Made by a program: the position numbers and the translations under genes. Shown here one piece after another: positions 3,035-61,073 of a stretch of DNA of 64,000 nt. The notes below the pieces were generated by a model. That model was not told the DNA's origin, searched no databases, and saw only the letters and a program-made list of their open reading frames with translations. How positions within the stretch are numbered: position 1 is the first letter of the stretch; the number at the start of each line of letters is the position of its first letter. The DNA lies in assembly GCA_000999025.1 (NCBI GenBank), contig LCFM01000003.1, forward strand, positions 12,253 to 76,252. Direction: 5' to 3'. The stretch is from Parcubacteria group bacterium GW2011_GWA2_43_13 (GTDB taxonomy: Bacteria > Patescibacteriota > Patescibacteriia > UBA9629 > GWA2-43-13).

Positions 3035-3082
3035 CCTCACCCCTACCCTCTCCTTATTAAGGAGAGGGAGACGACGGCACTC
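3035..3082 (+). repeat. Family B palindromic element (CCTCACCCCTACCCTCTCCTT-ATTA-AGGAGAGGGAGACGACGG)
   Basis: Perfect 10-bp stem CCCTCTCCTT/AAGGAGAGGG in the intergenic gap between 2618..3034 and 3089..5395. The right arm is a Shine-Dalgarno-like AAGGAGAGGG. Confidence 0.8.
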
Positions 3083-3088
3083 GTAATT

Positions 3089-5395
3089 ATGCGCAAAAAA
3101 ATTATTATCATCAACGTTATTTTATTATTAGGAGGAGGCATCTTGCTTCCGTTCCATTTTTTATCAGCCATAGATCAGCTGACTCCCATTATTATTGTAC
3201 CTGGTGTCGGCGCTTCGCTTAACTGGCAAACATTCACTGACCATGGGAATAATAGTTGGGATTTTGCACCAAGTGTAAATGACTATAAAACATTAATTCA
3301 AACACTTGAAGCACGTGGATATGTTTTAAACCAAAACCTCTTTATTGCGCATTATGATTGGCGGCAAAGTAATCTTTTATCAGCAACACAATATCTTAAA
3401 CCAGTGATTGATAAAGCAATACTAATCAATCGTACGAATGATGTCTATGTTATTGCTCACAGTATGGGCGGATTAGTAACACGATCATATGTGGAATATA
3501 ATAATGATACAAGAATTGCAAGCTTTATTATGCTTGGAACACCGAATTATGGATCCGGAGATACGTATACACTATGGGAAAATGGAACATTACCAGTAGG
3601 ATATACTGGAAAACGCGCATATGCCATCTTATTTTATCTCTGGTATCTTACAGCTTCTCAAAAATTATTTGGCGATAACTTTACTGCCGTACAACAAAAT
3701 GTCCAATCCGCAAAAGAGTTACTGCCGACATACGATTATCTCAAAAACGCAGAAACAGATGAAATAATTCCTTATGCAACGCATAAACGCAAAGCAAACA
3801 CCTTAAGCCGCAATTCGTTTTTAGAAAGTCTCAATGATCCATGGAGCATGCAAAAAATGATTGATCGTATTTTTAACACACACATTATCGCAGGCACTGG
3901 CGAGCAAACGCTAAAGTATATCCCTGTCGCGCCGGATAATGATACTAACAATGCGCAATGGACTGACGGTGTGCCATTACCTAATCCGCCACTAAAGGAT
4001 ACAGATGAGGGCGACGGGACAGTATTACTCGAAAGCGCGTTGATTAAAAATTTGGATATTCATAAACGGATTGTTTTGGTGCAGTCGTGGTGGAGGAAAG
4101 CGTTATCTTTATTCATACCTCACCCCTCCCTCTCCTTCTTAAGGAGAGGGAACGACGACGCCTCCGGACATCACCCCAACCCTCTTCCCAATCCGCCAGC
4201 TGGCGGATTGGGACAAGCTCTTGTAAAGGAGAGAGGGATTGACGTTGCCTACGCGCAAGAAGATGATGAAGGATATACGCATGAAGAATACATCCAAAAT
4301 TGCATTAATCGCGGAAAAACGCGGGAAGAATGCGAGCAACAACTTGAAAACTATTTTTTATCCAGCAGTTATCCAATTAAACTGCACACCATTGCCTCAA
4401 CCCATGGCGATTTGCCAACAACCGCGATCCCTAAAATCTTTGAAATACTTGGACTTGGCGCAGTGCCTGAAATACCGGCCCAACCATCCCCTATCCAACG
4501 ACTGCTCCAAGTATGGATTGGATCTCCTGTTGCAGTAGACATCACAGCCCCTGATGGAACCCCAATGAATGAAATAGAAAATATCGAAATCGCGACATCA
4601 GGTGGGGATGATCCGATTCAAATCATTTCCATCCCAGAACCGGAACAAGGGGAATATACTGTCACGCTTACTGGCACCGGAACAGGAGAATACCATCTTG
4701 CCGCCTCACTCATAAGCGATACTGAACAAACATTAACAACAAAAAATGGCACGACTGCGCCATCATTGCAAACAACATATACAGTAACAATCCCTGAACA
4801 ACCAGCAGAACCCACACAAAATCAAAACCTCTTTGAGCAAGAACCAACCACGGACTACACCCTTTCACTCTCGCAAGGATGGAATCTTATTTCTATCCCC
4901 TCTTTTATTTCCGACTCGTCTCCGGAATCATTCTTTGAAGAGAATATACAATCCATTGATTCTATTTGGTCGTATGACGCTTTGCAAGAAAATCCATGGC
5001 ACACATATTATCCGAACCGGCCGGAGCTCAACTCACTTACAACTCTCTCCCCCGGGTACGGCTATTGGATCAAATGGACATTGCAAGAGCCACTTACACT
5101 CACAAAACAAATAGCTCCGCTTGAGCAAGGGCCAATGACTCCGCCTTCACGCACACTCACAAATGGATGGAATTTAATCGGGCCATATCATCTCTTTAAT
5201 ACGCGATCAGGTGCTTTTGAAACAGCGTTTCAAACACTCACGCTGAATAATACCCCTTTATGGAAGTCCATACTTGGATATAATAATGACAGAAAAATAT
5301 TTCAACGATTTTCGGATGATGATTTTGACGATGCAGGCAATGGCTACTGGCTGTTTGTGCAAAATAAAAAAGGATCCTCTGTGTTTGCTCCGTAA
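3089..5395 (+). CDS. secreted alpha/beta-hydrolase (lipase/esterase, PGAP1/LCAT-like) with a large C-terminal domain
   Basis: N-terminal signal peptide and a nucleophile elbow GxSxG (VIAHSMGGLV). Residues encoded by about 4118-4212 come from family B and E repeat sequences in frame. Confidence 0.55.
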   Translation: MRKKIIIINVILLLGGGILLPFHFLSAIDQLTPIIIVPGVGASLNWQTFTDHGNNSWDFAPSVNDYKTLIQTLEARGYVLNQNLFIAHYDWRQSNLLSATQYLKPVIDKAILINRTNDVYVIAHSMGGLVTRSYVEYNNDTRIASFIMLGTPNYGSGDTYTLWENGTLPVGYTGKRAYAILFYLWYLTASQKLFGDNFTAVQQNVQSAKELLPTYDYLKNAETDEIIPYATHKRKANTLSRNSFLESLNDPWSMQKMIDRIFNTHIIAGTGEQTLKYIPVAPDNDTNNAQWTDGVPLPNPPLKDTDEGDGTVLLESALIKNLDIHKRIVLVQSWWRKALSLFIPHPSLSFLRRGNDDASGHHPNPLPNPPAGGLGQALVKERGIDVAYAQEDDEGYTHEEYIQNCINRGKTREECEQQLENYFLSSSYPIKLHTIASTHGDLPTTAIPKIFEILGLGAVPEIPAQPSPIQRLLQVWIGSPVAVDITAPDGTPMNEIENIEIATSGGDDPIQIISIPEPEQGEYTVTLTGTGTGEYHLAASLISDTEQTLTTKNGTTAPSLQTTYTVTIPEQPAEPTQNQNLFEQEPTTDYTLSLSQGWNLISIPSFISDSSPESFFEENIQSIDSIWSYDALQENPWHTYYPNRPELNSLTTLSPGYGYWIKWTLQEPLTLTKQIAPLEQGPMTPPSRTLTNGWNLIGPYHLFNTRSGAFETAFQTLTLNNTPLWKSILGYNNDRKIFQRFSDDDFDDAGNGYWLFVQNKKGSSVFAP
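4118..4212 (+). repeat. Family B element plus 26-bp perfect palindrome CCCAATCCGCCAGCTGGCGGATTGGG, inserted in frame within the hydrolase gene
   Basis: CCTCACCCCTCCCTCTCCTTCTTAAGGAGAGGGAACGACGACGCCTCC is nearly identical to the copy at 3035. It is translated as LSLFIPHPSLSFLRRGNDDASGHHPNPLPNPPAGGLGQ. Confidence 0.75.
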
Positions 5396-5405
5396 TGAGG
5401 GAGAT

Positions 5406-5469
5406 GTAGAGACGGGGTTAACCCCGTCTCTACGATTATTAAAAAGACACCCCGCTGGGGCGTCTCTAC
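5406..5469. repeat. Family A composite element (GTAGAGACGGGGTTAACCCCGTCTCTAC plus AGACACCCCGCTGGGGCGTCTCTAC)
   Basis: Lies between the convergent hydrolase gene and parB. Probably acts as a bidirectional terminator. Confidence 0.8.
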
Positions 5470-5499
5470 ACTACTCAAGATATGAGCCAAGCACGTGTA

Positions 5500-6399: not shown

Positions 6400-6489
6400 A
6401 CTGTTAAAAAATTCGAGCCCACCAGCTGGCGGAAAAATTCGAAACTATTTTTAATGTTATATTTTGAATGTCCTACTTTGTGCTTTTTC

Positions 6490-7272: not shown

Positions 7273-7531
7273 ATCATACGGTTTCTCTTTAGGAAATGGC
7301 AATCAGTAGACAATCTGCAAAAATTCTATTAAAGTATGGATGGTAAGTATAGGCATCACTCTCCAGAATTGAACTTAGAACGCAGGGGAAATTGTGTCTG
7401 GCGTAGTTTTGGAACGAGGGGGATTTGAGCCGTATCCAATGATACGGCGAAAATTTCCTGACGTGAAAAACAAGCCAGGCGCAATCTTAACAAGTTATGG
7501 AGTGCTATTTTGGGGAGTGATGCCTATGTAT

Positions 7532-12690: not shown

Positions 12691-12754
12691 GTAGAGACGC
12701 GGCGGTGCCACGTCTTATAGATACAAGAGACGCCCCAACGGGGCGCGTCTCTAC
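12691..12754. repeat. Family A composite element (unit Y-like GTAGAGACGCGGCGGTGCCACGTCTTATAG plus unit X GAGACGCCCCAACGGGGCGCGTCTCTAC)
   Basis: Read directly. Sits in the intergenic gap between two minus-strand genes. Confidence 0.8.
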
Positions 12755-14034: not shown

Positions 14035-14442
14035 ATGTTGTCACGAAAGATCCGGCGCACGCCTCATAGCCCAGTGCCACAAATAACAGTGAGTTACAAT
14101 ATAGTACCACAGGCGAACCTCCGCTCTGCGGACCTCCGCGAGGCGGACCTCCGCTCTGCGAACCTCCGCGAGGCGGACCTCCGCTCTGCGAACCTCAGCT
14201 GGGCGTTCCTCAACTGGGCGGACCTCCGCTCTGCGGACCTCCGCAAGGCGAACCTCCGCTCTGCGGACCTCCGCGAGGCGGACCTCCGCAAGGCGAACCT
14301 CCGCGGGGCGTTCCTCAACTGGGCGGACCTCCGCTCTGCGGACCTCCGCGAGGCGTTCCTCAGCGGAGCGAAATACAATGCACAAACCATGTTCCCCGAA
14401 GGATTTGATCCGAAAACCGCAGGAATGATCAAACAGGAATGA
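14035..14442 (+). CDS. pentapeptide-repeat protein
   Basis: ANLRSADLREADLRSANL repeats (A[DN]LxxA[DN]L). The underlying DNA is a 30-nt-period tandem repeat, so the antisense frames are also open. Confidence 0.55.
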   Translation: MLSRKIRRTPHSPVPQITVSYNIVPQANLRSADLREADLRSANLREADLRSANLSWAFLNWADLRSADLRKANLRSADLREADLRKANLRGAFLNWADLRSADLREAFLSGAKYNAQTMFPEGFDPKTAGMIKQE

Positions 14443-14508: not shown

Positions 14509-15780
14509 TTACAACCGCTTCTGTACACTTTTTATACCAACCACCAACCTCTCAACATCCTCTTCGGTATTATATACCCATACGCTTGCCCGACACGATG
14601 CGACAAGTCCTAAGTATTCATGCAAAGGCATAGCGCAGTGATGACCAGCGCGGATGGCAATATTTTGTTCATCCAATAATTGGGCTACATCATGAGCGTG
14701 GATGTTAGGGAAGTTAAACGAAATCAAACCAGAGCGTTTTTCAATCTCGCGAGGACCAAGAATCCAGTTTTCAGTTTTCATCTGCCAGCTGGCGGATCGG
14801 TTTTCAAATTTGACATTTGATAACTGACAACTGATATTTGAAAGTATTGCCTCCTCGTGCTTCCGTATATCATTCCAGCCCAAACTCTTTAACCAATTCA
14901 CTGCCGCGGCAAGCCCAATCGCGCCTGCGATATGTGGAGTGCCTGCTTCAAATTTATGCGGAACATCATTCCAAACCGAATAATCGCGATGCACTTCGCG
15001 GATCATATCCCCACCAGTTATAAACGGCTCCATCTCTTGCAGGCGTGATGACTTTGCGTATAACACGCCAATGCCGGTTGGGCCACCTAATTTATGCCCG
15101 GAAAACACCAGAAAATCACAATCTAAATCTCCCACATCCACTTTCATGTGAGGAACTGATTGCGAAGCATCAATCAATACTGGCACATGATGTTCATGCG
15201 CTTGTTTGATGATTTCTTTTATTGGATTGACCGTGCCAAGCACATTGGAGACATGGGTAAGCGCGAGGAAATTGATTGACTCAAAATAATGGTCAGGAAT
15301 AATCAATTCTCCATTTGCATCAACTTCCAAGTACCGTAACGTACTACCTTTGACATTTGACAACTGACATTTGACAACCGACTGCCACGGCACAATATTG
15401 CTGTGATGCTCGGCAATGGATAACCCAATAACCGCACCGTCACCCCCTCCTTTTAAAGGAAAGGGGAGGGGGTGGTTTCGCAACCACGCGTACGCGACTA
15501 AATTGATCGCCTCGGTCGCGTTGCGCGTAAAAATAATCTCGGAAGGATGCGCGCCAATAAAGCTGGCAACATCCTCCCGCGCCTGCTCATACGCCGCGGT
15601 GGCGCGATTAGAAAGCGCATAAATCCCCCTATGAACATTCGCGCTGTATTCGGTGTAATACTTGTTCATCGCGTCAATCACGCACTGCGGTTTTAGTGCT
15701 GTCGCCGCGCTATCTAAATACACCAAATCTGGATGATGGTTAAATATCGGAAATTCTTTTTTAATACTTTGATCAAACAT
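14509..15780 (-). CDS. sufS: cysteine desulfurase SufS (PLP-dependent), with three in-frame repeat insertions
   Basis: RAGHHCA active-site motif and the PLP lysine region (SGHKLGGPTG). The start was set at MFDQSIK to avoid overlap with the upstream gene. Confidence 0.85.
   Translation of the reverse strand: MFDQSIKKEFPIFNHHPDLVYLDSAATALKPQCVIDAMNKYYTEYSANVHRGIYALSNRATAAYEQAREDVASFIGAHPSEIIFTRNATEAINLVAYAWLRNHPLPFPLKGGGDGAVIGLSIAEHHSNIVPWQSVVKCQLSNVKGSTLRYLEVDANGELIIPDHYFESINFLALTHVSNVLGTVNPIKEIIKQAHEHHVPVLIDASQSVPHMKVDVGDLDCDFLVFSGHKLGGPTGIGVLYAKSSRLQEMEPFITGGDMIREVHRDYSVWNDVPHKFEAGTPHIAGAIGLAAAVNWLKSLGWNDIRKHEEAILSNISCQLSNVKFENRSASWQMKTENWILGPREIEKRSGLISFNFPNIHAHDVAQLLDEQNIAIRAGHHCAMPLHEYLGLVASCRASVWVYNTEEDVERLVVGIKSVQKRL
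14771..14844. repeat. Family C/E repeat in sufS (GCCAGCTGGCGGAT plus TTGACA-type heptamers)
   Basis: ctgccagctggcggatcggttttcaaatttgacatttgataactgacaactgatatttg is translated as NISCQLSNVKFENRSASWQMKTENW. Confidence 0.75.
15348..15384. repeat. Family C tandem repeat in sufS
   Basis: ctttgacatttgacaactgacatttgacaaccgactg is translated as KCQLSNVKGST. Confidence 0.8.
15441..15474. repeat. Family B-like palindrome in sufS (CACCCCCTCCTTTTAAAGGAAAGGGGAGGGGGTG)
   Basis: Imperfect hairpin translated as PLPFPLKGGGDG. Confidence 0.65.
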
Positions 15781-16197: not shown

Positions 16198-16845
16198 CTA
16201 TGATTGAGGTATTAATTTCATCACTTCGAATAAAAATCCTTTGATGATCATTTCTTGCGCTAATGCCTTTTCTATACCACGACTTTGGAGATAAAACAAC
16301 TGCCTATCATCAATCCTACCAGTCGTTGCGGCATGGCTTGCTTTGACATCATTGGCTTCTATTTCCAACTCCGGCTTGCTTTCTGATTTTGCATGTTTTG
16401 ATAGCAACAACACCCGATTTTCTAAAAACGCGTTTGATTGCTGGGCTGGTTTATCAATTTTGATCATGCCGTTGAACACTTGTTTACTCGCATCTTTCCC
16501 CACGCCTTTGAATAATGTTTTTGATTGCGAGCGCGGACCAAGATGATGAACAGTAAGATTGAATTGATAATGACTATCGTGTTCAGCAAGAACTGCGCCA
16601 CAGATTTCTGCCCGTGCGTCTGCGTGGAGTTCAACGCGCAGAGTACGGCGCGTCATCGTACCCTCTCCTAATGTAGGAGAGGGTACGATGACACTCGTCG
16701 GTACAAAAAAATACCGCACAACTCCAAACGGCTCTACCGTAATCACCGCCTCTCCCGAAACTCCCCCATCATCAACCACCACCAACTCATCGTTGGGATT
16801 AACACAAATATTATTCATCATATCAGACCAATGCAATAACTTCAT
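16198..16845 (-). CDS. sufD: SufD-like Fe-S assembly protein (short)
   Basis: C-terminal SufB/D core ([27 protein letters not shown]). The ORF contains family B element 16651-16692, which also offers an internal SD+ATG (start MTRRTLRVEL at 16656). Confidence 0.65.
   Translation of the reverse strand: MKLLHWSDMMNNICVNPNDELVVVDDGGVSGEAVITVEPFGVVRYFFVPTSVIVPSPTLGEGTMTRRTLRVELHADARAEICGAVLAEHDSHYQFNLTVHHLGPRSQSKTLFKGVGKDASKQVFNGMIKIDKPAQQSNAFLENRVLLLSKHAKSESKPELEIEANDVKASHAATTGRIDDRQLFYLQSRGIEKALAQEMIIKGFLFEVMKLIPQS
16651..16692. repeat. Family B element (CGTCATCGTACCCTCTCCTA-ATG-TAGGAGAGGGTACGATGAC)
   Basis: 19-bp near-perfect inverted repeat. Both orientations read AGGAGAGGG-N4-ATG. Confidence 0.8.
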
Positions 16846-16881
16846 AGTCGTTCATTCAAACACCTCCCCCTACGGTTGGCA

Positions 16882-18276
16882 TCAGCCAACCGATCCCTCC
16901 ATCTCCAACTCAATCAACCGATTCATCTCCACCGCGTACTCCAAAGGCAATTCTTTTACAATCGGCTCTATAAACCCATTCACCATCATTAAACTTGCTT
17001 CTTGCGGCGACAAACCACGGGATTGTAAATAAAACAACTGCTCTGTCCCTATTTTAGAAACCGTTGCTTCATGGCCAATAGAAACATCATCATTGTCAAT
17101 TTCCATCACCGGATAGGTGTCCGAACGCGACGCCTCATCCAAAATCAATGCATCGCACTGTACATTGGATTTTACGCCATACGCCTCCGGATGAATTTTT
17201 AATAACCCGCGATACGAAGTTCTGCCGCCATGATGACTGATGGATTTAGAAACAATATGCGAGGTAGTAAGCGGAGCCACATGCACCACTTTACCGCCCG
17301 CGTCTTGATGCTGACCTTCGCCTGCCATTGCCAAAGATAAAATATCAGCGCGCGCGCCTTTGCCCATTAAATACACAGATGGATATTTCATGGTAACTCG
17401 GCTCCCAAAATTACCATCCACCCATTCCATAGTCGCATCCTCATACGCGACTGCGCGTTTCGTCACGAGGTTGTACACATTTTTTGACCAATTCTGCACC
17501 GTGGTATACCGCACACGCGCGCCACGCAATACAATAATCTCCACCACCGCGCTGTGCAAAGATGCTGATTGATAGATAGGCGCGGTACAACCTTCCACAT
17601 AATGCACAAAACTGCCTTCATCCGCGATAATCAAGGTCCGTTCAAACTGCCCCATATTCTGCGCGTTGATGCGAAAATACGCTTGCAATGGCGTGTTGAC
17701 TTGCACTCCTGGAGGAACATACACAAAACTTCCGCCGCTCCACACCGCGCTATTTAAAGCGGCAAACTTGTTATCCCCAGAAGGAATCACGGTGCCAAAA
17801 TATTGTTTTACCAAATCAGGATGCTCTCGCATCGCGGTTTCAACATCAGAAAACACCACCCCTAAATCAACAAGCTCTTTACGCATATTATGATACACCA
17901 CTTCACTATCATACTGCGCGCCGACTCCCGCTAAAAAATCCTGCTCCATTTGCGGGATGCCTAAACGATCAAATGTTTTTTTAATATCTTTAGGCAAATC
18001 AGACCATTCTTGCGTACTTCGCTCTGTTGGTTTGAGATAATAATACATCTCATCAAAATTGATGCCTGACAAATCCGCGCCCCAATGTGGCATCTTTTTT
18101 TTACAAAACACATCATACGCATGCAGGCGATACTCCAGCATCCATTGCGGTTCATTTTTATAACGCGAAATCATTTCCACAATCGCACGAGACAACCCCT
18201 TGGGGGTTTTAAAAATATGAGCTTCAGTATCCTTAAATCCGTATTGATAATCCGGTTGTATTTGAATAAATGACAT
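16882..18276 (-). CDS. sufB: Fe-S cluster assembly protein SufB
   Basis: 464 aa with a conserved SufB C-terminus ([20 protein letters not shown]). Confidence 0.9.
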
Positions 18277-18290
18277 AATGGATATAAAAT

Positions 18291-18343
18291 ATCAATTTTC
18301 AAATGTCAAATTTGAAAACTGAAAACTGAAATTTGACATTTGG
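18291..18343. repeat. Family C tandem repeat (CTGAAAA/TTGACA heptamers), intergenic between sufC and sufB
   Basis: atcaattttcaaatgtcaaatttgaaaactgaaaactgaaatttgacatttgg. Confidence 0.8.
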
Positions 18344-20831: not shown

Positions 20832-20864
20832 AAAAAAAAGCCCTCTCAAGAGAGAGGGCTTTTG
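20832..20864. terminator. bidirectional rho-independent terminator (AAAAAAAAGCCCTCTC-AAGA-GAGAGGGCTTTT)
   Basis: Perfect 8-bp GC-rich stem flanked by an A-run and a T-run. The core CCCTCTC/GAGAGGG is related to family B. Confidence 0.7.
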
Positions 20865-31088: not shown

Positions 31089-31118
31089 CACTCTTCCCGT
31101 AGAGACGTATAGAGCCAT
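31089..31118. repeat. Family A single hairpin (GTAGAGACGTAT-AGAGCC-ATACGTCTCTAC)
   Basis: 12-bp perfect stem. Confidence 0.8.
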
Positions 31119-34200: not shown

Positions 34201-34267
34201 AATATCAAATGTCAGTTATCAGTTTTCAAATTTGACAACTGAAAATTGACAACTGAAAACTGCCAGT
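34201..34267. repeat. Family C tandem repeat between the hydrogenase subunit genes
   Basis: aatatcaaatgtcagttatcagttttcaaatttgacaactgaaaattgacaactgaaaactgccag. Confidence 0.8.
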
Positions 34268-35992: not shown

Positions 35993-37672
35993 TCACACTG
36001 TCCGGTTCGCCAGCGCCAAATGCATGTTAGTAAAGCGCGCTAAATTTGCGACTTGCCGCGCATGCAACCTCTCGCATGGCAAATCCCAGTGCATGGAAAT
36101 CCAATCACCTATAGCCGCATCATCCATTGACCCATCATCAGCCAAATGACGCCTGATAACGCGTTGCTCAACCGTAGCAAGATACAACTTCGCGCCATCA
36201 AACCGAATCGGCTGGCGCTCAACTGTAATTACTGGTCCGTCAATCGCAATCACTTTCCCCCAGCTAATCCTACAAGAATCAATACTCTCCACAGTATGCG
36301 GCTCCTCTTTATGCCCCATCCTCTGCCAGATGTTCATCACCTGAAACGAATGGTGCATTTTTGCCCCGCCAGATATTTTATCCTCAATATATCCAAAATA
36401 CTTACTACCAAACCGATCTTTTACTTTGAGTGTATCTTTCAAGTGGATATACATATCCTGCTTGGATGGTGTATCCAAAAGCTCATTTCCAACCCAATAC
36501 GCTTCAACCACTTTTTCATGCAAAGGGTCGGAAAGATGATTGGCGTCAGCAATGGCTTTTAAATAGGGATACATCACTTCAAACTGTGACAACAAATACC
36601 GCAGACCATAGTCCGCGGTGTTTTCGCCAAGATACGCCAACATCTCGCCCGATTTATCTGGTCCGCAAAAGTGCAATCTGTTCGGTGAAAACGCGTATCG
36701 CGCGCAACGAATAATCCCCTGCTCTTGAGATAGTAATTGAGGTGAGACCATAGAAACCATCGTCTCCCTCTCCTTTATTAAGGAGAGGGCTGGGGTGAGA
36801 TTTTTTTGTCGTGATGACATCACAAATACACCTGCTCCAGCCACAAGCAATATCATCGGAACAATCAATGCGCTTGGCCATTGTCCTGTTGTGATGTTTT
36901 GCAGTACAACCGTAATCGGAAACGCCAACACTAACACTGTTGATACAAACGAAGCGGATAATTTTTTTAATCCCGTATACCAACACGCAACATACCCACA
37001 CAACACCATACCTGTCACCAATGCCCAACCCACCTGCTCCCATGTTTGAGGAATCAACGCTTGTCCGCTCCCTTGAGCAATACTGTAAACAATCAAAAGC
37101 ACCGCACCAAACGCCATCCGTGCCCAAGCTCCAACCAGAGCCGGAATATTCTGCAATATTTTTTTTGCAATGATCGTCTCAATTGCCCATAAAATCGTAG
37201 CCCCCAATGCAAGAAAAAATCCTATTCCCCAGTCCCATCCCTTTAGGCCGCCTAACATCACCACGCCTATCATCATCACCACTATCCCAAGCCATTGCAA
37301 TCTACTCACCTTTTCTTTCAAGTAAACGGCAGACATAACAGCAACCCACACAAATAGGGTTTTATGAATAAACGCGGCTTGCGTTGCCGGCACCAACGTC
37401 AAACTCTTGAAAAATAAGACAAATGGCACAGAACCGCCAATCACACCGATTACAACAAGGTTGATCCATTGCTTCTTATTTAACAATTTCAATACTCGCC
37501 ATTGGGCAACCGCGCCCACCAACCCTGCCAGCAAACATGCGGCAATGATATTTTTTGTTGTTGTATACGCTACCGCATCAGACCAACTTCCCACACCAAA
37601 TTTATTGATAAACACCGCCACGCCACTGATAAGCGCTGTAATAAAGGGTAAAATAAATACATTATTTTTCAT
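35993..37672 (-). CDS. continuous ORF: N-terminal DMT/EamA-type transporter (about 37672-36800) joined in frame, through family B element 36758-36818, to a 255-aa unknown soluble domain (internal SD+ATG at 36760)
   Basis: Ten hydrophobic helices typical of EamA. The element reads AAGGAGAGGGAGACG-ATGGTTTCT on the coding strand. These are likely two genes, or a fusion created by the element. Confidence 0.5.
   Translation of the reverse strand: MKNNVFILPFITALISGVAVFINKFGVGSWSDAVAYTTTKNIIAACLLAGLVGAVAQWRVLKLLNKKQWINLVVIGVIGGSVPFVLFFKSLTLVPATQAAFIHKTLFVWVAVMSAVYLKEKVSRLQWLGIVVMMIGVVMLGGLKGWDWGIGFFLALGATILWAIETIIAKKILQNIPALVGAWARMAFGAVLLIVYSIAQGSGQALIPQTWEQVGWALVTGMVLCGYVACWYTGLKKLSASFVSTVLVLAFPITVVLQNITTGQWPSALIVPMILLVAGAGVFVMSSRQKNLTPALSLIKERETMVSMVSPQLLSQEQGIIRCARYAFSPNRLHFCGPDKSGEMLAYLGENTADYGLRYLLSQFEVMYPYLKAIADANHLSDPLHEKVVEAYWVGNELLDTPSKQDMYIHLKDTLKVKDRFGSKYFGYIEDKISGGAKMHHSFQVMNIWQRMGHKEEPHTVESIDSCRISWGKVIAIDGPVITVERQPIRFDGAKLYLATVEQRVIRRHLADDGSMDDAAIGDWISMHWDLPCERLHARQVANLARFTNMHLALANRTV
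36758..36818 (-). repeat. Family B element (reverse orientation relative to the 3035 copy)
   Basis: The reverse complement reads CTCACCCCAGCCCTCTCCTTAATAAAGGAGAGGGAGACGATGG. Confidence 0.8.
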
Positions 37673-38353: not shown

Positions 38354-39577
38354 ATGCAAAACTACGATTACATCATTATCGGTGGTGGAGTGGCAGGTAC
38401 GGTTGCCGCAGAAACCATTCGGCAGAATGATACAAACGGGACAATCGCCATTATCTCGGATGAACCATACCCGTTTTACTCCCGCATCATGCTATCAAAG
38501 CCAAACTTTTTTTTAGGCAAAATGTCGTTTGAGTCAATTTTCCGGCATGATAAGCAATGGTATATTCAAAACAATATAGATTTAAAAAATAGTATCAGGG
38601 CAACTACTCTCAATACTGATACAAAAAAGGTTACACTCAATACTAACGAATCCCTTACATACAACAAACTCCTCCTTGCCCTTGGCGTCTGCGCCCGAAC
38701 ATTAGGACTCCCAAACGAAACGATAAGCGGTGTCTATTGCGTTCGCACGCTTGATGATGCAAAAGGCATCATGAAAACCATAAAAACGGCAAAAAAAGCC
38801 GTTGTTGTTGGCGCTGGATTTATTGGGTTTGAAATGTGCGATATTCTCAAACTCGCTGGCCTTGATGTTACCCTCATTATCCGCGAGCCATTCTTTTGGG
38901 GACACCTCTTACATAACAAGGCCGGAAGTATTATAGAAAAAGCAATAACTGAAAAAGGAGTAACTATCATAAAAGAAGATGAAGTCGCAACTATTGAAGG
39001 CGCGGAAATAGTAACTGGTATCACAACAAAAAAGCAGGTCCATCTTAATGCAGATCTCCTTGCGATTGGTGTTGGATCCGTATGTCCTAAAGATATCCTT
39101 TTACAAAAAACAATGGAAACAAGAAATGGCATTATTGTGAACGAATATCTTGAAACCAATATGCCTGATATATGGGCCGCTGGTGATTGCGCTGAATATT
39201 TTGATACTATTTTGGATGAATATATCCAAATGGGAAACTGGGCAAATGCGCAATTGCAAGGAAAAATTGCCGGCCTCAATATGACTGGCACAAAAACTGC
39301 TTTTAGCGCCGTAACTAATTATACGTGTAGCGGATTTGGGCTTTCAATCGCTTTTGTAGGAGATGTAAAAAGCGGAGAAGGTAAAGAGTTAATAGAACGT
39401 ATGCCAGACGACACACATTCGTATGGCCACTTTATTCTTAAAGATAACCGCATTATTGGCGCGGCGCTCATTAACAGAACATCAGAACTGAATACCATTA
39501 CTACATTGATACAAAACAAAATTGATATTTCAAATAAAAAAGAACTCCTTGTATCAGGAGATATTGCAATATCGTAG
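38354..39577 (+). CDS. FAD-dependent pyridine nucleotide-disulfide oxidoreductase (NADH oxidase / rubredoxin reductase-like)
   Basis: Two Rossmann motifs (IIGGGVAGTVAAE and VVVGAGFIGFEM). The stop TAG is part of the family A hairpin. Confidence 0.75.
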   Translation: MQNYDYIIIGGGVAGTVAAETIRQNDTNGTIAIISDEPYPFYSRIMLSKPNFFLGKMSFESIFRHDKQWYIQNNIDLKNSIRATTLNTDTKKVTLNTNESLTYNKLLLALGVCARTLGLPNETISGVYCVRTLDDAKGIMKTIKTAKKAVVVGAGFIGFEMCDILKLAGLDVTLIIREPFFWGHLLHNKAGSIIEKAITEKGVTIIKEDEVATIEGAEIVTGITTKKQVHLNADLLAIGVGSVCPKDILLQKTMETRNGIIVNEYLETNMPDIWAAGDCAEYFDTILDEYIQMGNWANAQLQGKIAGLNMTGTKTAFSAVTNYTCSGFGLSIAFVGDVKSGEGKELIERMPDDTHSYGHFILKDNRIIGAALINRTSELNTITTLIQNKIDISNKKELLVSGDIAIS

Positions 39578-39656
39578 AGACGCCCCACTGGGGCGTCTTC
39601 AGGAAAATGCGACAATAGTGCATCTCTCATAAAGACGTGCCATCGGCACGTCTCTA
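39574..39656. repeat. Family A composite element (unit X GTAGAGACGCCCCACTGGGGCGTCTTC plus unit Y AAAGACGTGCCATCGGCACGTCTCTAC)
   Basis: Same architecture as 352-423. Lies between convergent genes. Confidence 0.8.
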
Positions 39657-39662
39657 CAAACA

Positions 39663-42498: not shown

Positions 42499-43101
42499 TT
42501 ACACACTCAACCCAACTTGCGACAATTCCTGCTTTAGTTGATCCGCATTTCGAAAATAAATAGCATGAATACCTAAACTTGTGGCAAGTTTTGCAGAATC
42601 CTCATCATCATCAATAAACACAGTTTCATCCGGTTGAACGCCAAAATGTTCAAGCACCATTTTATAGGATCGTTCCGTTGCTTTGGTAAATCCGTTTTCG
42701 CATGAAAAATACATAAAATCAAACAACTGCATTGATGGGAATGTTTTTTTAATCCAATCAGCCCGCTCAAAAAAATTATCAGACATCACGGCAACTTTTT
42801 CAACTTGGGATTTTACTTTTTTCACCAACTCAAAATGTTCCATCACTTCATGCGTACCCTCTGTTTTAAACCATAAATCAAAAAACTCCTGCTCATTCAC
42901 ATGCAAACCCCATACAGAAAGATACGGCTCCCATGCGGGAAACGAAGGCGTGTTGATATCGCATTTTGGCGGCATTACTCTGCCACGCAAAATACCTAAA
43001 AATTCCGGCTTGGAAACATGATATTCTTTTTCCAAAAAATCGCTAAATCGCGATCCTTGGAGCAAAAATCCGTCAAGATCAAATATCGCAAGTTTGATCA
43101 T
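42499..43101 (-). CDS. HAD-superfamily hydrolase
   Basis: DxD motif I (IFDLDGF) and motif IV DD (FIDDDEDS). Confidence 0.8.
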   Translation of the reverse strand: MIKLAIFDLDGFLLQGSRFSDFLEKEYHVSKPEFLGILRGRVMPPKCDINTPSFPAWEPYLSVWGLHVNEQEFFDLWFKTEGTHEVMEHFELVKKVKSQVEKVAVMSDNFFERADWIKKTFPSMQLFDFMYFSCENGFTKATERSYKMVLEHFGVQPDETVFIDDDEDSAKLATSLGIHAIYFRNADQLKQELSQVGLSV

Positions 43102-43102: not shown

Positions 43103-43195
43103 CCCTCGTTCCCCTCCCCTATAATCGGGGAGGGCAGGGTGGGGTATATGACCTCCCTCTACCCCCTCCTTCACAAGGAGAGGAAGATATTATCG
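43103..43195. repeat. two Family B-like hairpins (CCCCTCCCC-TATAATC-GGGGAGGG and CCCCCTCCTT-CACA-AGGAGAGG)
   Basis: Intergenic between the HAD gene and pgk. Confidence 0.7.
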
Positions 43196-44389
43196 CTATC
43201 CGTTATTCAACGCTTCAAACCCAGGCAATGTGCCTTGTTCAATAAACTCAAGCATTGCCCCTCCACCAGTTGATATGTGAGTAATTTTTTCCAAATATTC
43301 TTTTTTAGATACAGCGGCTAATGTTTCACCCCCACCGATCACGGAAACAGCATCCTTATTCTGCGTGATTGCATAATAAATAAAATCAGTGCCACGGCCA
43401 AATGCGGGATTCTCAAACAAACCAACCGGTCCATTCCATATAATGGTTTTTGCTTTTGCAATAATTGCCCCAAACCGCGCCTGCGTTTCTGGGCCGATAT
43501 CTAAAATATACCCGTCTTGTGGCACTTCATCAACTTTTTTAATTTCTCCGCCTTCTTTTGAATTATCCGGCTCGCCGATCACAACATCAGATGGCAACAC
43601 CACTGCAGTGTTTTTTTGCGCGGCCATATACAAAATCCTGCGCGCATTTTCAATTTCTTCATACTCAACCAAGCTCTTGCCAATTTCAAATCCCTGCGCC
43701 GCGATAAAATTATTCGCCAATCCGCCACCGACAAGCAAATAATCGGCAAGTTCAAGCAACCTGCCTATGAATTTAATTTTCCCTGAAATTTTTGCGCCAC
43801 CGATAATGGCAACCAACGGCTTTTGCGGTTTGGCGATAACGGATGAAATCATTTCAATTTCTTTTTTCAACAGCAACCCGCCATATGATGGAATCAATGC
43901 CGCAACACCGACAACCGAAGTGTCAGTCCGATGACACACCCCAAACGCGTCGTTTACATACACATCTGCAAGTTCTGCTAATTTTTTTGCAAATTCAGGA
44001 TCATTCTTTTTTTCTTCGGCATAAAATCGGATATTTTCAAGTACCAATATCTCATTCTCTTTTTGTGCGGAAAATGTTTCCTTGGGTTCAATCAAAAAAT
44101 CATCAACTAATTTTACAGTAAAACCATCAAGATATTCTTGTAAACGAGCAACAACAGGTTTTAACGAAAGTTTAGGATCGCGTTTTTCAGGCCTATCGAG
44201 ATGAGACACCAATATCAATTTATTGCCTTTTTCAAGTAAATATTTAATCGTAGGCAGACCCTGTTGAATACGGGCATCGTCCGCGATAGTAAGATTGTCA
44301 TGCAACGATACATTAAAATCAACCCGCAATAATACCCGTTTATGCAAAATATCATGCTCATCAATAAAATGAATGTTAAAATCCGTCAT
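43196..44389 (-). CDS. pgk: phosphoglycerate kinase
   Basis: Full-length Pgk with conserved N- and C-lobe motifs (RVDFNVS, GGGA). Confidence 0.9.
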   Translation of the reverse strand: MTDFNIHFIDEHDILHKRVLLRVDFNVSLHDNLTIADDARIQQGLPTIKYLLEKGNKLILVSHLDRPEKRDPKLSLKPVVARLQEYLDGFTVKLVDDFLIEPKETFSAQKENEILVLENIRFYAEEKKNDPEFAKKLAELADVYVNDAFGVCHRTDTSVVGVAALIPSYGGLLLKKEIEMISSVIAKPQKPLVAIIGGAKISGKIKFIGRLLELADYLLVGGGLANNFIAAQGFEIGKSLVEYEEIENARRILYMAAQKNTAVVLPSDVVIGEPDNSKEGGEIKKVDEVPQDGYILDIGPETQARFGAIIAKAKTIIWNGPVGLFENPAFGRGTDFIYYAITQNKDAVSVIGGGETLAAVSKKEYLEKITHISTGGGAMLEFIEQGTLPGFEALNNG

Positions 44390-44416: not shown

Positions 44417-44444
44417 GTAGAGACGGGGTGAACCCCGTCTCTAC
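44417..44444. repeat. Family A single hairpin (GTAGAGACGGGGTGAACCCCGTCTCTAC)
   Basis: Read directly. Confidence 0.8.
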
Positions 44445-52779: not shown

Positions 52780-52807
52780 GTAGAGACCGGGTGAACCCCA
52801 TCTCTAC
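52780..52807. repeat. Family A-like single hairpin (GTAGAGACCGGGTGAACCCCATCTCTAC, degenerate)
   Basis: Two mismatches relative to the 44417 copy. Confidence 0.7.
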
Positions 52808-53646: not shown

Positions 53647-53675
53647 GTAGAGACACCCCCCTGAGGCGTCTCTAT
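53647..53675. repeat. Family A-like single hairpin (GTAGAGACACCCCCCTGAGGCGTCTCTA)
   Basis: Read directly. Confidence 0.7.
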
Positions 53676-54226
53676 AATCCCAAATCATCAGCAATGTCTT
53701 TCATGGCCTCAAGCTCAAGCACAACTAATTCTTCAAGCGTCATACCAAGCAGTTCTTGGCATCTGGCAATAAGATCGCGATCTACTCCGCGAGCAAACCC
53801 CGGTGTTTTAAATTTTTTCAATATTGATTCAGAAATAACTGATGCGAGTTTTTTATCCGGCTGTACCAATGCGCACGCTACAATCAACCCGGTCAATTCT
53901 TCTGCACAATACAATGCCTTTTCAAGCATAGTTTGCGGTTCAATCCCATGCAAATGATTATGCACATAAATCGCTCGGACAACGTCATCATCCACTCCTG
54001 CTGTTTTTAAATATCCTTGCGACATAATGGAATGTTGCAAGGGATCATCTGCTGTTTCTTCCCAATCAATATCATGCAACAGTCCTGCAAGCGCCCATTT
54101 TGCTTGATCTTGTTCAAACCTTTTTGCCAGCGCTTTCATAACTGCTTCTGCCGCAACCATGTGTTTGATTAAACTTTCATTTTTTACATGTTCTCGTAAT
54201 AATGCCATTGATTGTTGTTGTGTCAT
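53672..54226 (-). CDS. HD-domain phosphohydrolase
   Basis: HD motif LLHDIDWEE with additional conserved His and Asp residues. 184 aa. Confidence 0.7.
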   Translation of the reverse strand: MTQQQSMALLREHVKNESLIKHMVAAEAVMKALAKRFEQDQAKWALAGLLHDIDWEETADDPLQHSIMSQGYLKTAGVDDDVVRAIYVHNHLHGIEPQTMLEKALYCAEELTGLIVACALVQPDKKLASVISESILKKFKTPGFARGVDRDLIARCQELLGMTLEELVVLELEAMKDIADDLGL

Positions 54227-54242
54227 AGTATTATTTTCATAC

Positions 54243-54350
54243 CACCCCCTCCTTATACAGGATGGGGAAACTGATACATCACCTCTCCTTTACAAAGAGA
54301 GTGCCCATACGTCTCCCTCTCCGTTGCAAGGAGAGGGTAGGGTGAGGTTT
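54243..54350. repeat. cluster of three Family B hairpins (last copy reverse: CCTCACCCTACCCTCTCCTT-GCAAC-GGAGAGGGAGACGTAT)
   Basis: Intergenic between the HD gene and the MazG-like gene. Also encodes the last residues of the MazG-like ORF. Confidence 0.75.
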
Positions 54351-54678
54351 ACCGACCATCCCCGCTCCCACCTAACACACCACGGTCTTTGCGAGAAAAT
54401 AATTTTTCAATATTTGCTTGCGCGATATCATCTAATGATAATCCAAATTCTGTTGCGCATTGTGAAACATACCACAACACATCACCAAGCTCGCTCTTAA
54501 TATCTTCGCGTTTCTCATCAGATACAACACCACTATCATCCCGCATTATTTTTTTCACTTTTCCGGCAACCTCGCCTGCCTCGCTCGCAAGGCCCAATGT
54601 CGGGTAAATAAAATTCTTTCCCACATTGGGATACAGTGCCGTTGTTTTCGATTTTTGCTGATACTCTTCAAAGTTCAT
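54349..54678 (-). CDS. MazG-like nucleotide pyrophosphohydrolase
   Basis: ASEAGEVAGKVKK ... ELGDVLWYV all-alpha NTP-PPase motifs (EExxE...DxxW). Confidence 0.75.
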   Translation of the reverse strand: MNFEEYQQKSKTTALYPNVGKNFIYPTLGLASEAGEVAGKVKKIMRDDSGVVSDEKREDIKSELGDVLWYVSQCATEFGLSLDDIAQANIEKLFSRKDRGVLGGSGDGR

Positions 54679-56536: not shown

Positions 56537-56539
56537 ATA

Positions 56540-57778
56540 TTATTCATACCGCAACGCCTCGATCGGGCTTTTTCCTGCGGCCTTTTTTGCGGGATACAAG
56601 CCAAATACTAATCCGATAAGAGCGGAAACCCCCAGTCCTAACAGAGCCGCGTCAATAGGGAACACAAATGCCCACTGCATGGTTGCAAACCGCGATAACA
56701 GAAACGACGCGCTCCACGAAAGAAAAGCGCCAAACGCAATACCCACTATCCCGCCGATACCAGTAAGCATCACTGCCTCGCATAAAAATTGTATCAAAAT
56801 ATCGCGATCCCTGGCACCCACTGCCTTTCGTAACCCAATTTCGCGCGTCCGTTCCGCAACTGCCACAAGCATAATATTCATAATACCGATACCGCCCACA
56901 ACCAACGATATCGCCGCAACCGCACCCAACAACAATGTCAGTACTCCAGTTATAACTCCAACCCGCTCAATCGCGTCCGCCTGGGTAGTAACATGAAAAT
57001 CATCTTTTGATGGATCAGCAATCCCATGCGTCTCCCGTAATGTAAGCTCCACATCGCGTGCAACCCGCTCAACGCTTTCATCCGTCACCGCTTGCGCAAT
57101 AATGGAATGATAATAATTGATGCCGAGTAAATATTCCTGCGCCGTGGTGTAAGGAATAAAAATAATATCATCAACATTAACCAGCGACACGCGCCCCTTT
57201 TTCCCCATCACACCAATCACGCGTAAAGATTGATTTTTGACTTTAATTTTTTCGCCTATCGCATTTTGGCCATTAAATAATTTATTTTTTATTTCCGCGC
57301 CAAGCACTGCAACTGACGCGCGCTGGCGTACATCTTCATCCGTAAACATGGCACCTTCGGCAGGCCGAATATCCAAAATATCAGTCAACAAATCGGAAGA
57401 TCCCCATACTGTTGTTCGCACTGATTCATTTTTATAATTCACAGACGCGGCAACAGTAACAACCGGCGTCATATCTTTTAAATCCTGTACATTTGCGAGT
57501 TTGCTCAATGCGCGAATATCTTTTTCTGTTAACGAATCAGTATACATTTCAGCAAAATCAGATGGGCCTTGTGGTTCTCTCCCCGGCTCTATCGAGATTG
57601 TACGGCTCCCCCACCCTTGAATTTGGCTCAAAATCAATTCCTGCGCTCCGGCGCCGATTGCCATCACCATCATAATGGCGGTAATGCCGATCACAATCCC
57701 CAGAATAGTCAAAGCAGATCGAGACCGATTCGATTTTAACCCATGTACTGCTTGTATGATTGCGTAACGAAGCTTCAT
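56540..57778 (-). CDS. ABC transporter permease (MacB/FtsX-like)
   Basis: N-terminal TM, large periplasmic domain, and C-terminal FtsX 3-TM block. Confidence 0.85.
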   Translation of the reverse strand: MKLRYAIIQAVHGLKSNRSRSALTILGIVIGITAIMMVMAIGAGAQELILSQIQGWGSRTISIEPGREPQGPSDFAEMYTDSLTEKDIRALSKLANVQDLKDMTPVVTVAASVNYKNESVRTTVWGSSDLLTDILDIRPAEGAMFTDEDVRQRASVAVLGAEIKNKLFNGQNAIGEKIKVKNQSLRVIGVMGKKGRVSLVNVDDIIFIPYTTAQEYLLGINYYHSIIAQAVTDESVERVARDVELTLRETHGIADPSKDDFHVTTQADAIERVGVITGVLTLLLGAVAAISLVVGGIGIMNIMLVAVAERTREIGLRKAVGARDRDILIQFLCEAVMLTGIGGIVGIAFGAFLSWSASFLLSRFATMQWAFVFPIDAALLGLGVSALIGLVFGLYPAKKAAGKSPIEALRYE

Positions 57779-57798
57779 AAGTGTTCATGAACCCACTC

Positions 57799-57893
57799 CG
57801 TCATCCGTAGGGTGGCACCTCTCCTTGTTAAGGAGAGGAGGACGACGGCGTATCCCCCCTCCTTAACAAGGAGGGGGTAGGGGGTGGTCTACC
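57799..57893. repeat. two Family B elements head-to-head (forward copy ...CACCTCTCCTT-GTTA-AGGAGAGGAGGACGACGGCG; reverse copy CCACCCCCTACCCCCTCCTT-GTTA-AGGAGGGGGG)
   Basis: Intergenic between the ABC permease and ATPase genes. Confidence 0.8.
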
Positions 57894-57896
57894 TCC

Positions 57897-58613
57897 TTAT
57901 TTTTTATACTCTCTCTTCTCTCCATCTTTCCCAACACGCCGATCATGCTCAACATGGCCGTCCTTCATGGTGATAACCCGATGCGCGAATGCGGCAGTTA
58001 CTGTTTCGTGGGTAATAAGAATAATCGTTGTGCCTTGTTTTCTATTCACCTCATCCAAAATAGTCATTACTGCTTTCCCAGACACGGAATCAAGATTCCC
58101 GGTCGGCTCGTCTGCAAAAATCACTTCTGGATCCAGCACTAACGCGCGCGCAATGGCAACACGCTGTTTTTCACCACCAGAAAGTTTTGATGTATGAAAT
58201 TGAGAACGATGCGAAAGCCCGACTGCATCAATCGCGTGTTCAACACGATTATGCCATTCTTTTTTAGAAATACGAGAATATAGCAAAGGCAAAGTAACAT
58301 TTTCATACACTGAAACACGCGCAAGGAGATTAAATGCCTGAAAAATAAACCCCATTTTCTCGTTACGCACCAATGCTATTTCATCTGATGAGTACTCATC
58401 CATTGTTTTGTTTTCAAACCGATACACGCCATCAGTATGGCGGTCTAAAAAACCCAATACATGAAGCAGTGTTGACTTACCTGATCCAGACGGCCCCATA
58501 ATCGCGACAAACTCGCCCTTATCAATTGCAAAAGAAACACCGCATAACGCATGTGTTTCAACCCCGTCTGACTCATACACTTTGGTAATATTCTCTATTT
58601 CCATCAGCGCCAT
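57897..58613 (-). CDS. ABC transporter ATP-binding protein (MacB/LolD-type)
   Basis: Walker A GPSGSGKST, signature LSGGEKQRVAIARAL, Walker B IFADEPTGNLD. Confidence 0.9.
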   Translation of the reverse strand: MALMEIENITKVYESDGVETHALCGVSFAIDKGEFVAIMGPSGSGKSTLLHVLGFLDRHTDGVYRFENKTMDEYSSDEIALVRNEKMGFIFQAFNLLARVSVYENVTLPLLYSRISKKEWHNRVEHAIDAVGLSHRSQFHTSKLSGGEKQRVAIARALVLDPEVIFADEPTGNLDSVSGKAVMTILDEVNRKQGTTIILITHETVTAAFAHRVITMKDGHVEHDRRVGKDGEKREYKK

Positions 58614-58622
58614 ACTATCGAA

Positions 58623-60383: not shown

Positions 60384-60399
60384 ATACTACTGATGCTGA

Positions 60400-60999
60400 T
60401 TACTTTTCCTCTTTCAACCCTATCAATGCGCGATACAACCACATGGCAAGAACCGCACCGACAATCGGCCCTACAAGATACATCACGTTACGCGCTCCAA
60501 ACACAAGCGCGACAGCAGGGTTCAGAAGCCCCAATGAAACAGTAGAGGCAACGCTGATACCGATAAGAAACGCGCCTCCAATAACAACGCCTGATAATGA
60601 TTGAGAGGCCTTTTTCTCAATCACCGCGCTCACACCAAAAGCCAACACGAACGCGCCGATCAATTCTGCAAGACCGACAATGCTGGTATTTTTAACCAAT
60701 GGATTCATTGGGCTTATGATAAATACCCCTGCCAGCGCCGCCGCAAGCCCGGCGCCTGCTAATTGCGCGATGATATATCCAAGCGCATCCTGAACACCTA
60801 TTTTACGCACAGAAAATACCGCAAGCGTAATAGCGGGATTCAAATGCGCTCCTGATACCATGCCGAGTGTATACACGCAAAAACCGAGCACAAGAGCGGC
60901 AAGCGCCGGTGTGCCGATGCGGGTAATAAGTCCAGTTGAAACAAGCACGCTGAATGCAAGCAAAAACGTGCCGATAAATTCTGCAAGATATTTTTTCAT
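60400..60999 (-). CDS. aquaporin / MIP-family channel
   Basis: Two NPA boxes (AHLNPAITLA and LNPAVALV). Confidence 0.85.
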   Translation of the reverse strand: MKKYLAEFIGTFLLAFSVLVSTGLITRIGTPALAALVLGFCVYTLGMVSGAHLNPAITLAVFSVRKIGVQDALGYIIAQLAGAGLAAALAGVFIISPMNPLVKNTSIVGLAELIGAFVLAFGVSAVIEKKASQSLSGVVIGGAFLIGISVASTVSLGLLNPAVALVFGARNVMYLVGPIVGAVLAMWLYRALIGLKEEK

Positions 61000-61010
61000 A
61001 GTATCGCGAT

Positions 61011-61073
61011 CCCCTCCCCTTGGTAAGGGGATGGCAGGGTGTCACCCTGCGGGTGATCCCCCGAAGGGGGAAG
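61011..61073. repeat. degenerate Family B-like hairpin cluster (CCCCTCCCC...AAGGGGATGG, CAGGGTGTCACCCTG, TCCCCCGAAGGGGGA)
   Basis: Three short GC-rich hairpins. Confidence 0.6.

Follow-up and report, generated by a model that had tools for sequence, protein, structure and literature searches.

A family of short palindromic repeats, probably selfish, within and between the genes of a Parcubacteria bacterium and in other phyla and phages

Introduction

A 64,000-nucleotide stretch of contig LCFM01000003.1 of Parcubacteria group bacterium GW2011_GWA2_43_13 (hereafter the window) carries many copies of a short palindrome, here called family B, one arm of which contains the Shine-Dalgarno (SD) string AAGGAG. 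The host is a candidate-phyla-radiation (CPR) bacterium of the Parcubacteria / Candidatus Jacksonbacteria. An initial annotation of this DNA had proposed that family B is at once a hairpin and a portable ribosome-binding site, able to donate start codons, to split or fuse genes and to seed antisense open reading frames (ORFs). The locus therefore raises the question whether a repeat that looks like a ribosome-binding site acts as one, or whether it is something else. Here we report that family B probably consists of small, non-autonomous, selfish palindromic repeats, with the anatomy of repetitive extragenic palindromic (REP) sequences and MITEs (miniature transposable elements with inverted repeats) and the behaviour of Rickettsia palindromic elements (RPEs).

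Results

Anatomy and copies of family B in the window

Three exact palindromes CCCTCTCCTT-N3-7-AAGGAGAGGG are present in the window (at 3046, 4128 and 36766) and none in 100 shuffled sequences; when up to one mismatch is allowed, the family B arm is found 25 times, where 2.3 are expected and the shuffle maximum is 6. The family thus lies where the initial annotation had placed it, far above chance. Copies read and aligned together with their flanks define an asymmetric unit of ~45 nt, (A)ACCTCACCCC-NN-CCCTCTCCTT-loop-AAGGAGAGGG-(A)GACGACGG, in which a 10-bp stem (CCCTCTCCTT/AAGGAGAGGG) closes a loop of 3-4 nt; the annotated consensus was right in giving a palindrome with flanks, but not in giving a loop of 4-5 nt, since the arms extend to 10 nt. 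Two sub-types are present, one with CCCTCTCC stems and a CTCACCCC flank, the other with CCCCCTCC stems and a CCACCCCC flank. Single units fold with dG values of -17 to -40 kcal/mol and inverted pairs with values of -43 to -46 kcal/mol, which makes them strong hairpins, in support of the hairpin nature proposed in the initial annotation, and the AAGGAG arm is always fully paired in the hairpin.

We count 14 copies in the window. Six are intragenic, in frame and stop-free, with SufS, SufD, a lipase and the junction between EamA and DUF6390 as hosts; the other eight occupy the whole of five spacers, 54-122 nt long, between codirectional genes. The copies, with dG in kcal/mol, are as follows.

E1, 3037..3078, plus strand: exact palindrome filling the spacer from ORF 2618..3034 to the lipase-like gene 3089..5395; dG -18.2; flanks CCTCACCCCTA / GAGACGACGG
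E2, 4120..4163, plus strand: in frame within the lipase-like gene; encodes IPHPSLSFLRRGNDDA
E2b, 4168..4240, plus strand: in frame within the lipase-like gene; hairpin split by a nested 33-nt insertion; dG -25
Nested insertion in E2b, 4186-4213: unrelated perfect 14+14-nt palindrome TCCCAATCCGCCAG/CTGGCGGATTGGGA, in frame
E3, 15438..15480, minus strand: CCCCCTCC sub-type, in frame in sufS; encodes NHPLPFPLKGGGDG; SufS residues across the junction ...NHPLPFPLK / GGGDGAVIGLSIAEHHSNIVPWQSVVK
E4, 16652..16692, no strand assigned: in frame in sufD; perfectly palindromic, arms of 19 bp; dG -40; encodes VIVPSPTLGEGTMT; holds the internal ATG 16656; SufD region ...VPSPTLGEGTMTR
E5, 36756..36800, minus strand: bridges EamA/DMT and DUF6390 to give a 559-codon ORF; encodes NLTPALSLIKERETM; ATG 36760 in the right flank
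E6 (minus strand) and E7 (plus strand), 43103..43192 (43103-43146 and 43150-43192): inverted pair, dG of the pair -43.4; nearly all of the 94-nt spacer from pgk (43196..44389) to the HAD hydrolase gene (42499..43101)
E8 and E9 (degenerate) and E10 (minus strand), 54243-54272, 54278-54303 and 54306-54348: fill the 122-nt spacer from the MazG-like gene (54349..54678) to the HD-domain gene (53672..54226)
E11 (plus strand) and E12 (minus strand), 57808-57848 and 57849-57890: inverted, REPIN-like pair (see below) forming one long hairpin, dG -45.9; in the 118-nt spacer from the ABC ATPase gene (57897..58613) to the permease gene (56540..57778)
E13, 61009..61045, minus strand: degenerate, with a CCCCTCCCC stem, upstream of the MIP channel gene (60400..60999)

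Among the degenerate relatives proposed in the initial annotation, those at 15441, 54243-54303 and 61011 belong to the family, and the copy at 4168-4240 had been missed. Two other candidates do not belong: 20836..20863 (20840) is a hairpin of the ordinary intrinsic-terminator kind, AAAAGCCCTCTC...GAGAGGGCTTTT (A-run, stem, T-run), without CTCACCCC/GACGACGG flanks, and 19118 is a weak, unrelated hairpin without flanks. The two pairs that had been described as head-to-head are both inverted but are not arranged alike: CTCACCCC-type ends face each other in the pair at 43103/43151, and GACGACGG ends in the pair at 57808/57849.

The copies are present in four independent, near-identical assemblies (two NCBI metagenome-assembled genomes, or MAGs, and two ENA assemblies; 99.6-100% identity over 21 kb), and family B is therefore no assembly artefact. 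The coding sequence of the window SufB is identical on 19 public contigs. An Rfam scan of the window returned only tRNAs at gathering score, and no rRNA gene; the family B hairpins matched no Rfam family, the only matches being spurious ones of long hairpins to miRNA precursors, far below threshold. No T-run lies 3' of any family B copy in the window, so the copies do not have the form of intrinsic terminators. The stems are nearly invariant and show no compensating changes, which makes a covariation test uninformative.

In-frame copies compared with orthologues

The intragenic copies can be compared with orthologous genes. In a 12-sequence alignment of SufS, inserts are confined to the window's clade, where they occupy four different sites and carry the element-type peptides PSPxxGEG and PLLxKEGxGGG; the other bacteria and archaea in the alignment have none. 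An AlphaFold2 (AF2) model of the window SufS (mean predicted local distance difference test score, pLDDT, 74) places the E3 insert as a predicted coil between helix 88-102 and strand 117-121, with a pLDDT of ~60 for the 10-residue block. In SufD, the 50 residues N-terminal of E4 are conserved in four lineages. The insertion site is empty in the Jacksonbacteria relative L009, in which the N-terminal 50 codons are contiguous with the rest of the gene, and the inserts of the window, L005 and L007 differ in length and content but are all in frame.

The lipase-like ORF (768 aa) is a single genuine gene, for which full-length orthologues exist. At the site of the window's 40 additional residues, the orthologues P0244-P0246 have no insert, and P0243 is without copy E2. 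When the DNA of this site is aligned with that of three relatives, copies are seen to be arranged there in tandem, as dimers or nested, all at one and the same position, and the counterpart of E2b in the L198 orthologue is intact, the 33-nt nested insertion being absent there.

The 559-codon EamA–DUF6390 ORF exists only in the window's genome. All other DMT homologues are 307-327 aa long, and DUF6390 homologues stand alone, with lengths of 245-265 aa, except for a few longer ones, the fusion P0362 among them. E5 sits exactly at the junction. By these comparisons of homologues, E5 has fused two ancestrally separate neighbour genes, as the initial annotation had said that such an element could. 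P0362 (563 aa), from a distant lineage, is an independent EamA/DMT-DUF6390 fusion with a linker that is not element-like, and this second fusion suggests that EamA/DMT and DUF6390 are probably functional partners.

We conclude that copies of family B were gained, lost, duplicated and nested during the divergence of related species, that they persist in genes stop-free and with the frame preserved, and that one of them joins two ORFs.

Copies in other CPR DNA

To the window and its syntenic loci we added 21 metagenome loci that carry a lineage-specific variant, which gave a CPR sample of 265 kb with 94 hairpins. In this sample 48 of the 94 hairpins (51%) are embedded in frame and stop-free inside ORFs, with at least 60 ORF codons on each side; 37 are not spanned by an ORF, and nine lie at gene junctions, with long ORFs on both sides and a stop or frameshift between them. 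Among these nine, the cases in the window and in L005-L009 are gene boundaries or non-members of the family. All six orientation and frame classes are used in CPR genes, with 4-11 copies each, and the encoded peptides are PSPxxGEG, PLLxKERG, LSxLRRG and their reverse-strand equivalents. That all six frames are used speaks for simple tolerance rather than for a protein module under selection; the arms, made up of pyrimidines only or purines only, contain no stop codon in any frame, which makes all six reading frames tolerable. Among the hosts are bona fide essential genes, those for ValRS and LeuRS (three copies each), LepA, RecJ, CysRS and TruB; further hosts are genes for a radical-SAM enzyme and glycosyltransferases.

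Translation starts and the SD-like arm

The right arm does contain the string AAGGAG, as annotated, and two copies do carry an in-frame ATG 9 nt past it, at 16656 and 36760; both ATGs arise from an ACGATG variant of the right flank (consensus ACGACG). The upstream regions of the window's genes, however, give no sign of SD use. An SD-like 4-mer lies upstream of two of the 26 genes called by public assemblies, and only one of these is within SD range. GGAG, GAGG or AGGA occurs at positions -18 to -4 of seven of 58 long ORFs, against 8.4% of random 15-mers and 10% of the sequences before internal ATGs, and two of the seven matches are family B elements themselves. A position table of the sequences upstream of the 58 genes has no purine peak and instead shows T at -1 in 44 of 58 (for example at 3089, 43101, 57778 and 60999). 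Both element-borne ATGs have G at -1, whereas the next ATG of DUF6390 (36751) has T at -1. A TAnAnT box lies 10-20 nt upstream of 10 of the 58 starts against 4% expected, a modest enrichment that hints at short or absent leaders.

As judged from these upstream sequences, the genome appears to initiate translation without SD sequences, and the AAGGAG of the arm belongs to the repeat as such and is no ribosome-binding site. The initial annotation had named an absence of SD-type recognition as the observation that would speak against its proposal, and, as far as the upstream regions of genes show, such recognition is absent. SD-independent initiation is probably also the reason why so many SD-like strings are tolerated inside genes, and the proximity of copies to start codons follows from their filling whole spacers. 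The sufD ATG at 16656 had been proposed as a start, with a comparison of orthologues as the means to decide; since 50 conserved codons precede it and are contiguous with the rest of the gene in L009, it is internal and no start.

The antisense ORF 16688..17032, thought to have been seeded by the E4 palindrome, is broken by stop codons in L005 and L008. Another such ORF, 54159..54500 (plus strand, 113 codons), is made up mostly of the three copies E8-E10 and runs into the ends of two genuine genes on the minus strand. Both ORFs are by-products of stop-poor repeats.

Spread beyond the CPR

The exact core is present in at least 120 loci of species-representative genomes, isolates and closed chromosomes included. 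Among the matches listed are Nostoc, Rivularia, Scytonema and Calothrix (Cyanobacteria), Bacteroidota, Ignavibacteria, Armatimonadota, Chloroflexota, several Patescibacteria, Acidobacteria and one Bathyarchaeia MAG. Of the 139 cross-phylum copies among these listed matches, 95 have CTCACC within 16 nt of one arm, against 0.7% by chance, and 28 have the inverted partner GGTGAG within 60 nt, which gives a MITE-like form. Outside the CPR only 14 of the 139 copies are embedded in ORFs, which marks heavy colonisation of coding sequence as a feature of compact CPR genomes.

Phage contigs hold the core as well, at 45 loci; most of these include the flank and lie between phage genes, and, to judge by sequence, some of the neighbours may be structural proteins. 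In the IMG/VR loci L132, L161, L168, L171 and others, the hairpin with its CTCACCCC flank lies between genes, and L132 has up to five copies in 7 kb. Phages are possible vehicles for the spread across phyla.

A search for cargo genes between or beside copies returned only one recurrent family, DUF559 (Vsr-like endonuclease). In the 1.66 Mb of loci examined there are four of these small genes, from CPR, Bacteroidota and one further genome, and copies stand close by on both sides of each (L009 9531-9970; L019 430-900; L100 2380-2880; L190 5800-6056). DUF559 is accordingly a lead on the mobilising enzyme. The L009 gene stands in place of the Rieske gene of the suf operon, and its own stop codon falls between a copy's flank and that copy's stem. 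A search of the same 1.66 Mb for the motif HUH...Y..NP found no ORF resembling a REP-associated tyrosine transposase (RAYT).

Comparison with known repeat families

In the top-ranked CPR papers of the literature searched, we found no description of such repeats and no mention of MITEs or REPs, and a literature string search for the family B motif returned primers only. Known families of short palindromes offer closer comparisons.

RPEs (Ogata et al. 2000/2002, summarised in PMC10969869 and PMC3733652) are in-frame inserts in many genes of a reduced genome. Family B resembles them in being a palindromic repeat that lies in frame in unrelated, often essential genes as well as between genes, that would add loop peptides, that inhabits a small reduced genome and that has no dedicated transposase known, and its share of intragenic copies in the CPR sample equals or exceeds the one reported for RPEs. 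The in-frame, stop-free insertion into conserved protein genes by which RPEs are recognized is found in family B. The differences are that the unit of ~45 nt is shorter than RPE-1 (~100-150 bp), RPE-4 and RPE-6 being short CGTC-REPs, and that the stems are unlike the CGTC/ATTCC type described for RPE-4 and RPE-6. Family B differs further in its CPR host, in its use of all six frames and in the recurrence of the same core and flank in many phyla and phages.

REP elements and REPINs (inverted REP doublets) are mobilised by RAYT (TnpA-REP) Y1 transposases (PMC3116915, PMC6006769). Family B shares with them a short palindrome, a conserved unpaired motif at one foot and high copy number, and its inverted dimers at 43103-43192 and 57808-57890 (-43 and -46 kcal/mol) form long hairpins as REPINs do. 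The REPs of RAYT subclass 2.4 resemble it in their distribution over Cyanobacteria, Bacteroidetes and scattered phyla, and in in-frame insertion, in their case into the RAYT gene itself. The GT[AG]G that stands 0-2 nt 5' of the hairpin foot in canonical REPs is absent from family B, which has the flanks CTCACCCC-NN and (A)GACGACGG instead, and half of the CPR copies are not extragenic. The CGTC-1 to CGTC-4 REPs of Di Nocera et al. 2013 have stems of 8-9 bp that open with A-T pairs (positions 1 and 2), and their tail is CCA (PMC3733652). Read on the opposite strand, family B is likewise CGTC(T)-stem-loop-stem, with the tag 1-3 nt before the stem in about six of ten clear window copies; stems of ~9-10 bp, short loops, dimers, intragenic copies and the lack of a known associated transposase are also shared. 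But family B stems start with C-G (CCCTC/GAGGG), the tail is TAGGGGTGAGG and not CCA, and the CGTC tag is missing from the copies in other phyla. The defining feet and stems of canonical REPs and of CGTC-REPs are thus not those of family B, which belongs to neither group.

The bacterial MITEs compared were Correia/NEMIS, ERIC, RUP and Nezha (PMC10969869). A composite bounded by the 10-bp inverted repeats ACCTCACCCC...GGGGTGAGGT, as in the 28 cross-phylum copies above and the pair at 57808-57890, is MITE-like, as are internal hairpins, non-coding character, dispersal and the capacity to create in-frame fusions. The single unit is shorter than a typical MITE, however, most window copies are single and asymmetric, and neither a target-site duplication nor a parent insertion sequence was found. 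Shine-Dalgarno sites share the string AAGGAG(G), but in family B the motif lies in a stem, and mostly inside ORFs. Many of the cross-phylum matches listed are Nostocales, and family B may be identical to, or overlap with, a family of small dispersed repeats (SDRs). Elhai and colleagues reportedly described in 2008 such repeats of Cyanobacteria (Nostoc/Anabaena), nested in one another and in hairpins.

Other repeats and differences in the window

The window holds a second family of hairpins, with the canonical form of REPs and REPINs: GTAGAGACGCCCC-loop-GGGGCGTCTC (GTAGAGACG...), headed by GTAG, with 20 heads against 4.4 expected. These form inverted pairs or 'double-foot' palindromes (GTAG...CTAC), and the start of their stem, GAGACG, recurs in the 3' tail of family B. 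Their presence suggests a RAYT-type system in this CPR genome. They are located as follows.

352-423: GTAG-headed REP
5406-5469: GTAG-headed REP
12691-12754: GTAG-headed REP
31099-31128: GTAG-headed REP
39574-39657: GTAG-headed REP
44417-44444: GTAG-headed REP
52780-52807: GTAG-headed REP
53647-53675: GTAG-headed REP

A further, heptamer-like repeat, TGTCAAATGTCAA, forms strain-variable tandem arrays, and inverted arrays upstream of genes, at 14111-14370, 18282-18339 and 34205-34256. A repeat of this type occurs in frame twice inside SufS (codons for CQLSNVK); at the same two SufS sites, P0003 has a different repeat, YQVSGIGLKPE. At 26058-26062 the window is without 111 nt that are present in L002-L004 at the 3' end of the gene for the N-terminal half of transketolase, a position that reads as a run of N in L001. 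Either a deletion in the strain or a discrepancy between assemblies would account for this.

Discussion

The explanation that we consider likely is that family B consists of selfish palindromic repeats that are small and non-autonomous. The mobile unit would comprise the 5' flank ACCTCACCCC, the 10-bp hairpin and, in this lineage, the 3' tail GACGACGG, and two inverted units would form a longer hairpin bounded by terminal inverted repeats. Spread would depend on a nuclease or transposase that acts in trans and recognises hairpin and flank, and selection would retain harmless copies only, of two classes: those that fill tiny spacers between codirectional genes, and those inside genes that are stop-free and add a multiple of three bases. 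The latter would be translated as loops of 8-17 residues of the type Pro/Ser/Leu...Gly/Glu/Arg/Lys. Occasionally a copy would remove the stop/start boundary between neighbours and so fuse them, as with EamA and DUF6390.

Several observations weigh against this explanation. The stem is nearly invariant across phyla, which is unusual for REPs and is unexplained by simple selfish spread. No transposase, other mobilising enzyme or parent insertion sequence was found. Near-identical assemblies (L001-L004, L005/6, L007/8, L009/10) show no strain-level presence or absence of copies, the differences within these groups being confined to tandem repeats of an unrelated kind and to a tRNA region. No clean target-site duplication was seen, filled and empty sites being compared between diverged species only. 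Translation of the inserts is deduced from the conservation of ORFs, and the intergenic copies could have a role at the RNA level.

A portable ribosome-binding site, in which AAGGAG recruits ribosomes and ATGs in or near the element become new starts that split genes, re-start them or create antisense genes, is very improbable, and the proposal that family B donates start codons in this way is not borne out. The arm is a canonical SD string, with an in-frame ATG 9 nt away in two copies; the HAD and MIP genes start 11 nt downstream of a GGAGG within copies; and E5 overlies the ancestral N-terminus of DUF6390, the closest homologue, P0361, starting four codons upstream of M305, so that an element-borne start at that junction is conceivable. 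But SD strings are no more frequent upstream of genes than in background, starts mostly have T at -1 where both element-borne ATGs have G, stems of -17 to -40 kcal/mol bury the arm, a conserved ORF encloses the sufD ATG, and the antisense ORF is not conserved. The spacing to the real starts at 3089, 43101 and 60999 is 11-20 nt, and about half of the CPR copies lie deep in genes, in all six frames. The same embedded copies are left unexplained, as are the nested and tandem insertions, if family B is a set of RNA elements selected by the host as stabilisers of mRNA 3' ends, processing sites or attenuators between cistrons, repeated because they function. That all eight intergenic window copies lie between codirectional genes and occupy the whole spacer, that the stems are very stable and conserved in sequence across phyla, and that phage-contig copies lie between genes of which some, to judge by sequence, may be structural speaks for such a role; we nevertheless judge it improbable, because no T-run follows the stems, the stems, being nearly invariant, show no covariation, no Rfam family matches and relatives manage with empty sites.

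Intervening sequences are carried by the rRNA genes of CPR bacteria, and compact insert hairpins could be substrates of a double-strand-specific RNase; the intragenic copies might then be cut from the mRNA or skipped by the ribosome. This is hardly credible, since stop codons in such copies would be harmless, yet the 48 embedded copies are stop-free in the frame of the host gene and only nine are interrupted, and since insert lengths vary by lineage while the frame is always kept; to our knowledge, moreover, no splicing of simple hairpins from bacterial mRNA has been described. A bolder reading, which we hold to be doubtful, is that ACCTCACCCC and the CCCTCTCCTT/AAGGAGAGGG hairpin form one sequence-constrained module of at least eight phyla and phages, recognised by a dedicated nuclease for which DUF559 would be the candidate; the system would flourish in SD-independent lineages and be a major source of insertions and fusions in CPR proteins, aminoacyl-tRNA synthetases included.

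As selfish palindromic repeats, family B elements add a member of the REP/MITE/RPE kind in a CPR bacterium. Many lineage-specific insertions and odd fusions in CPR proteins, housekeeping proteins included, would then come from one repeat family and not from adaptive domain evolution. After Rickettsia, family B would give a second large-scale example of coding sequence colonised by palindromic repeats, and once more the genome is a reduced one. The recurrence of one core across distant phyla and phages, unusual for REP-like repeats, calls for a common recognition protein or vector. Finally, a genome with AAGGAG inside its genes but without SD sequences upstream of them is a natural experiment on the effect of internal SD-like motifs where initiation is SD-independent.

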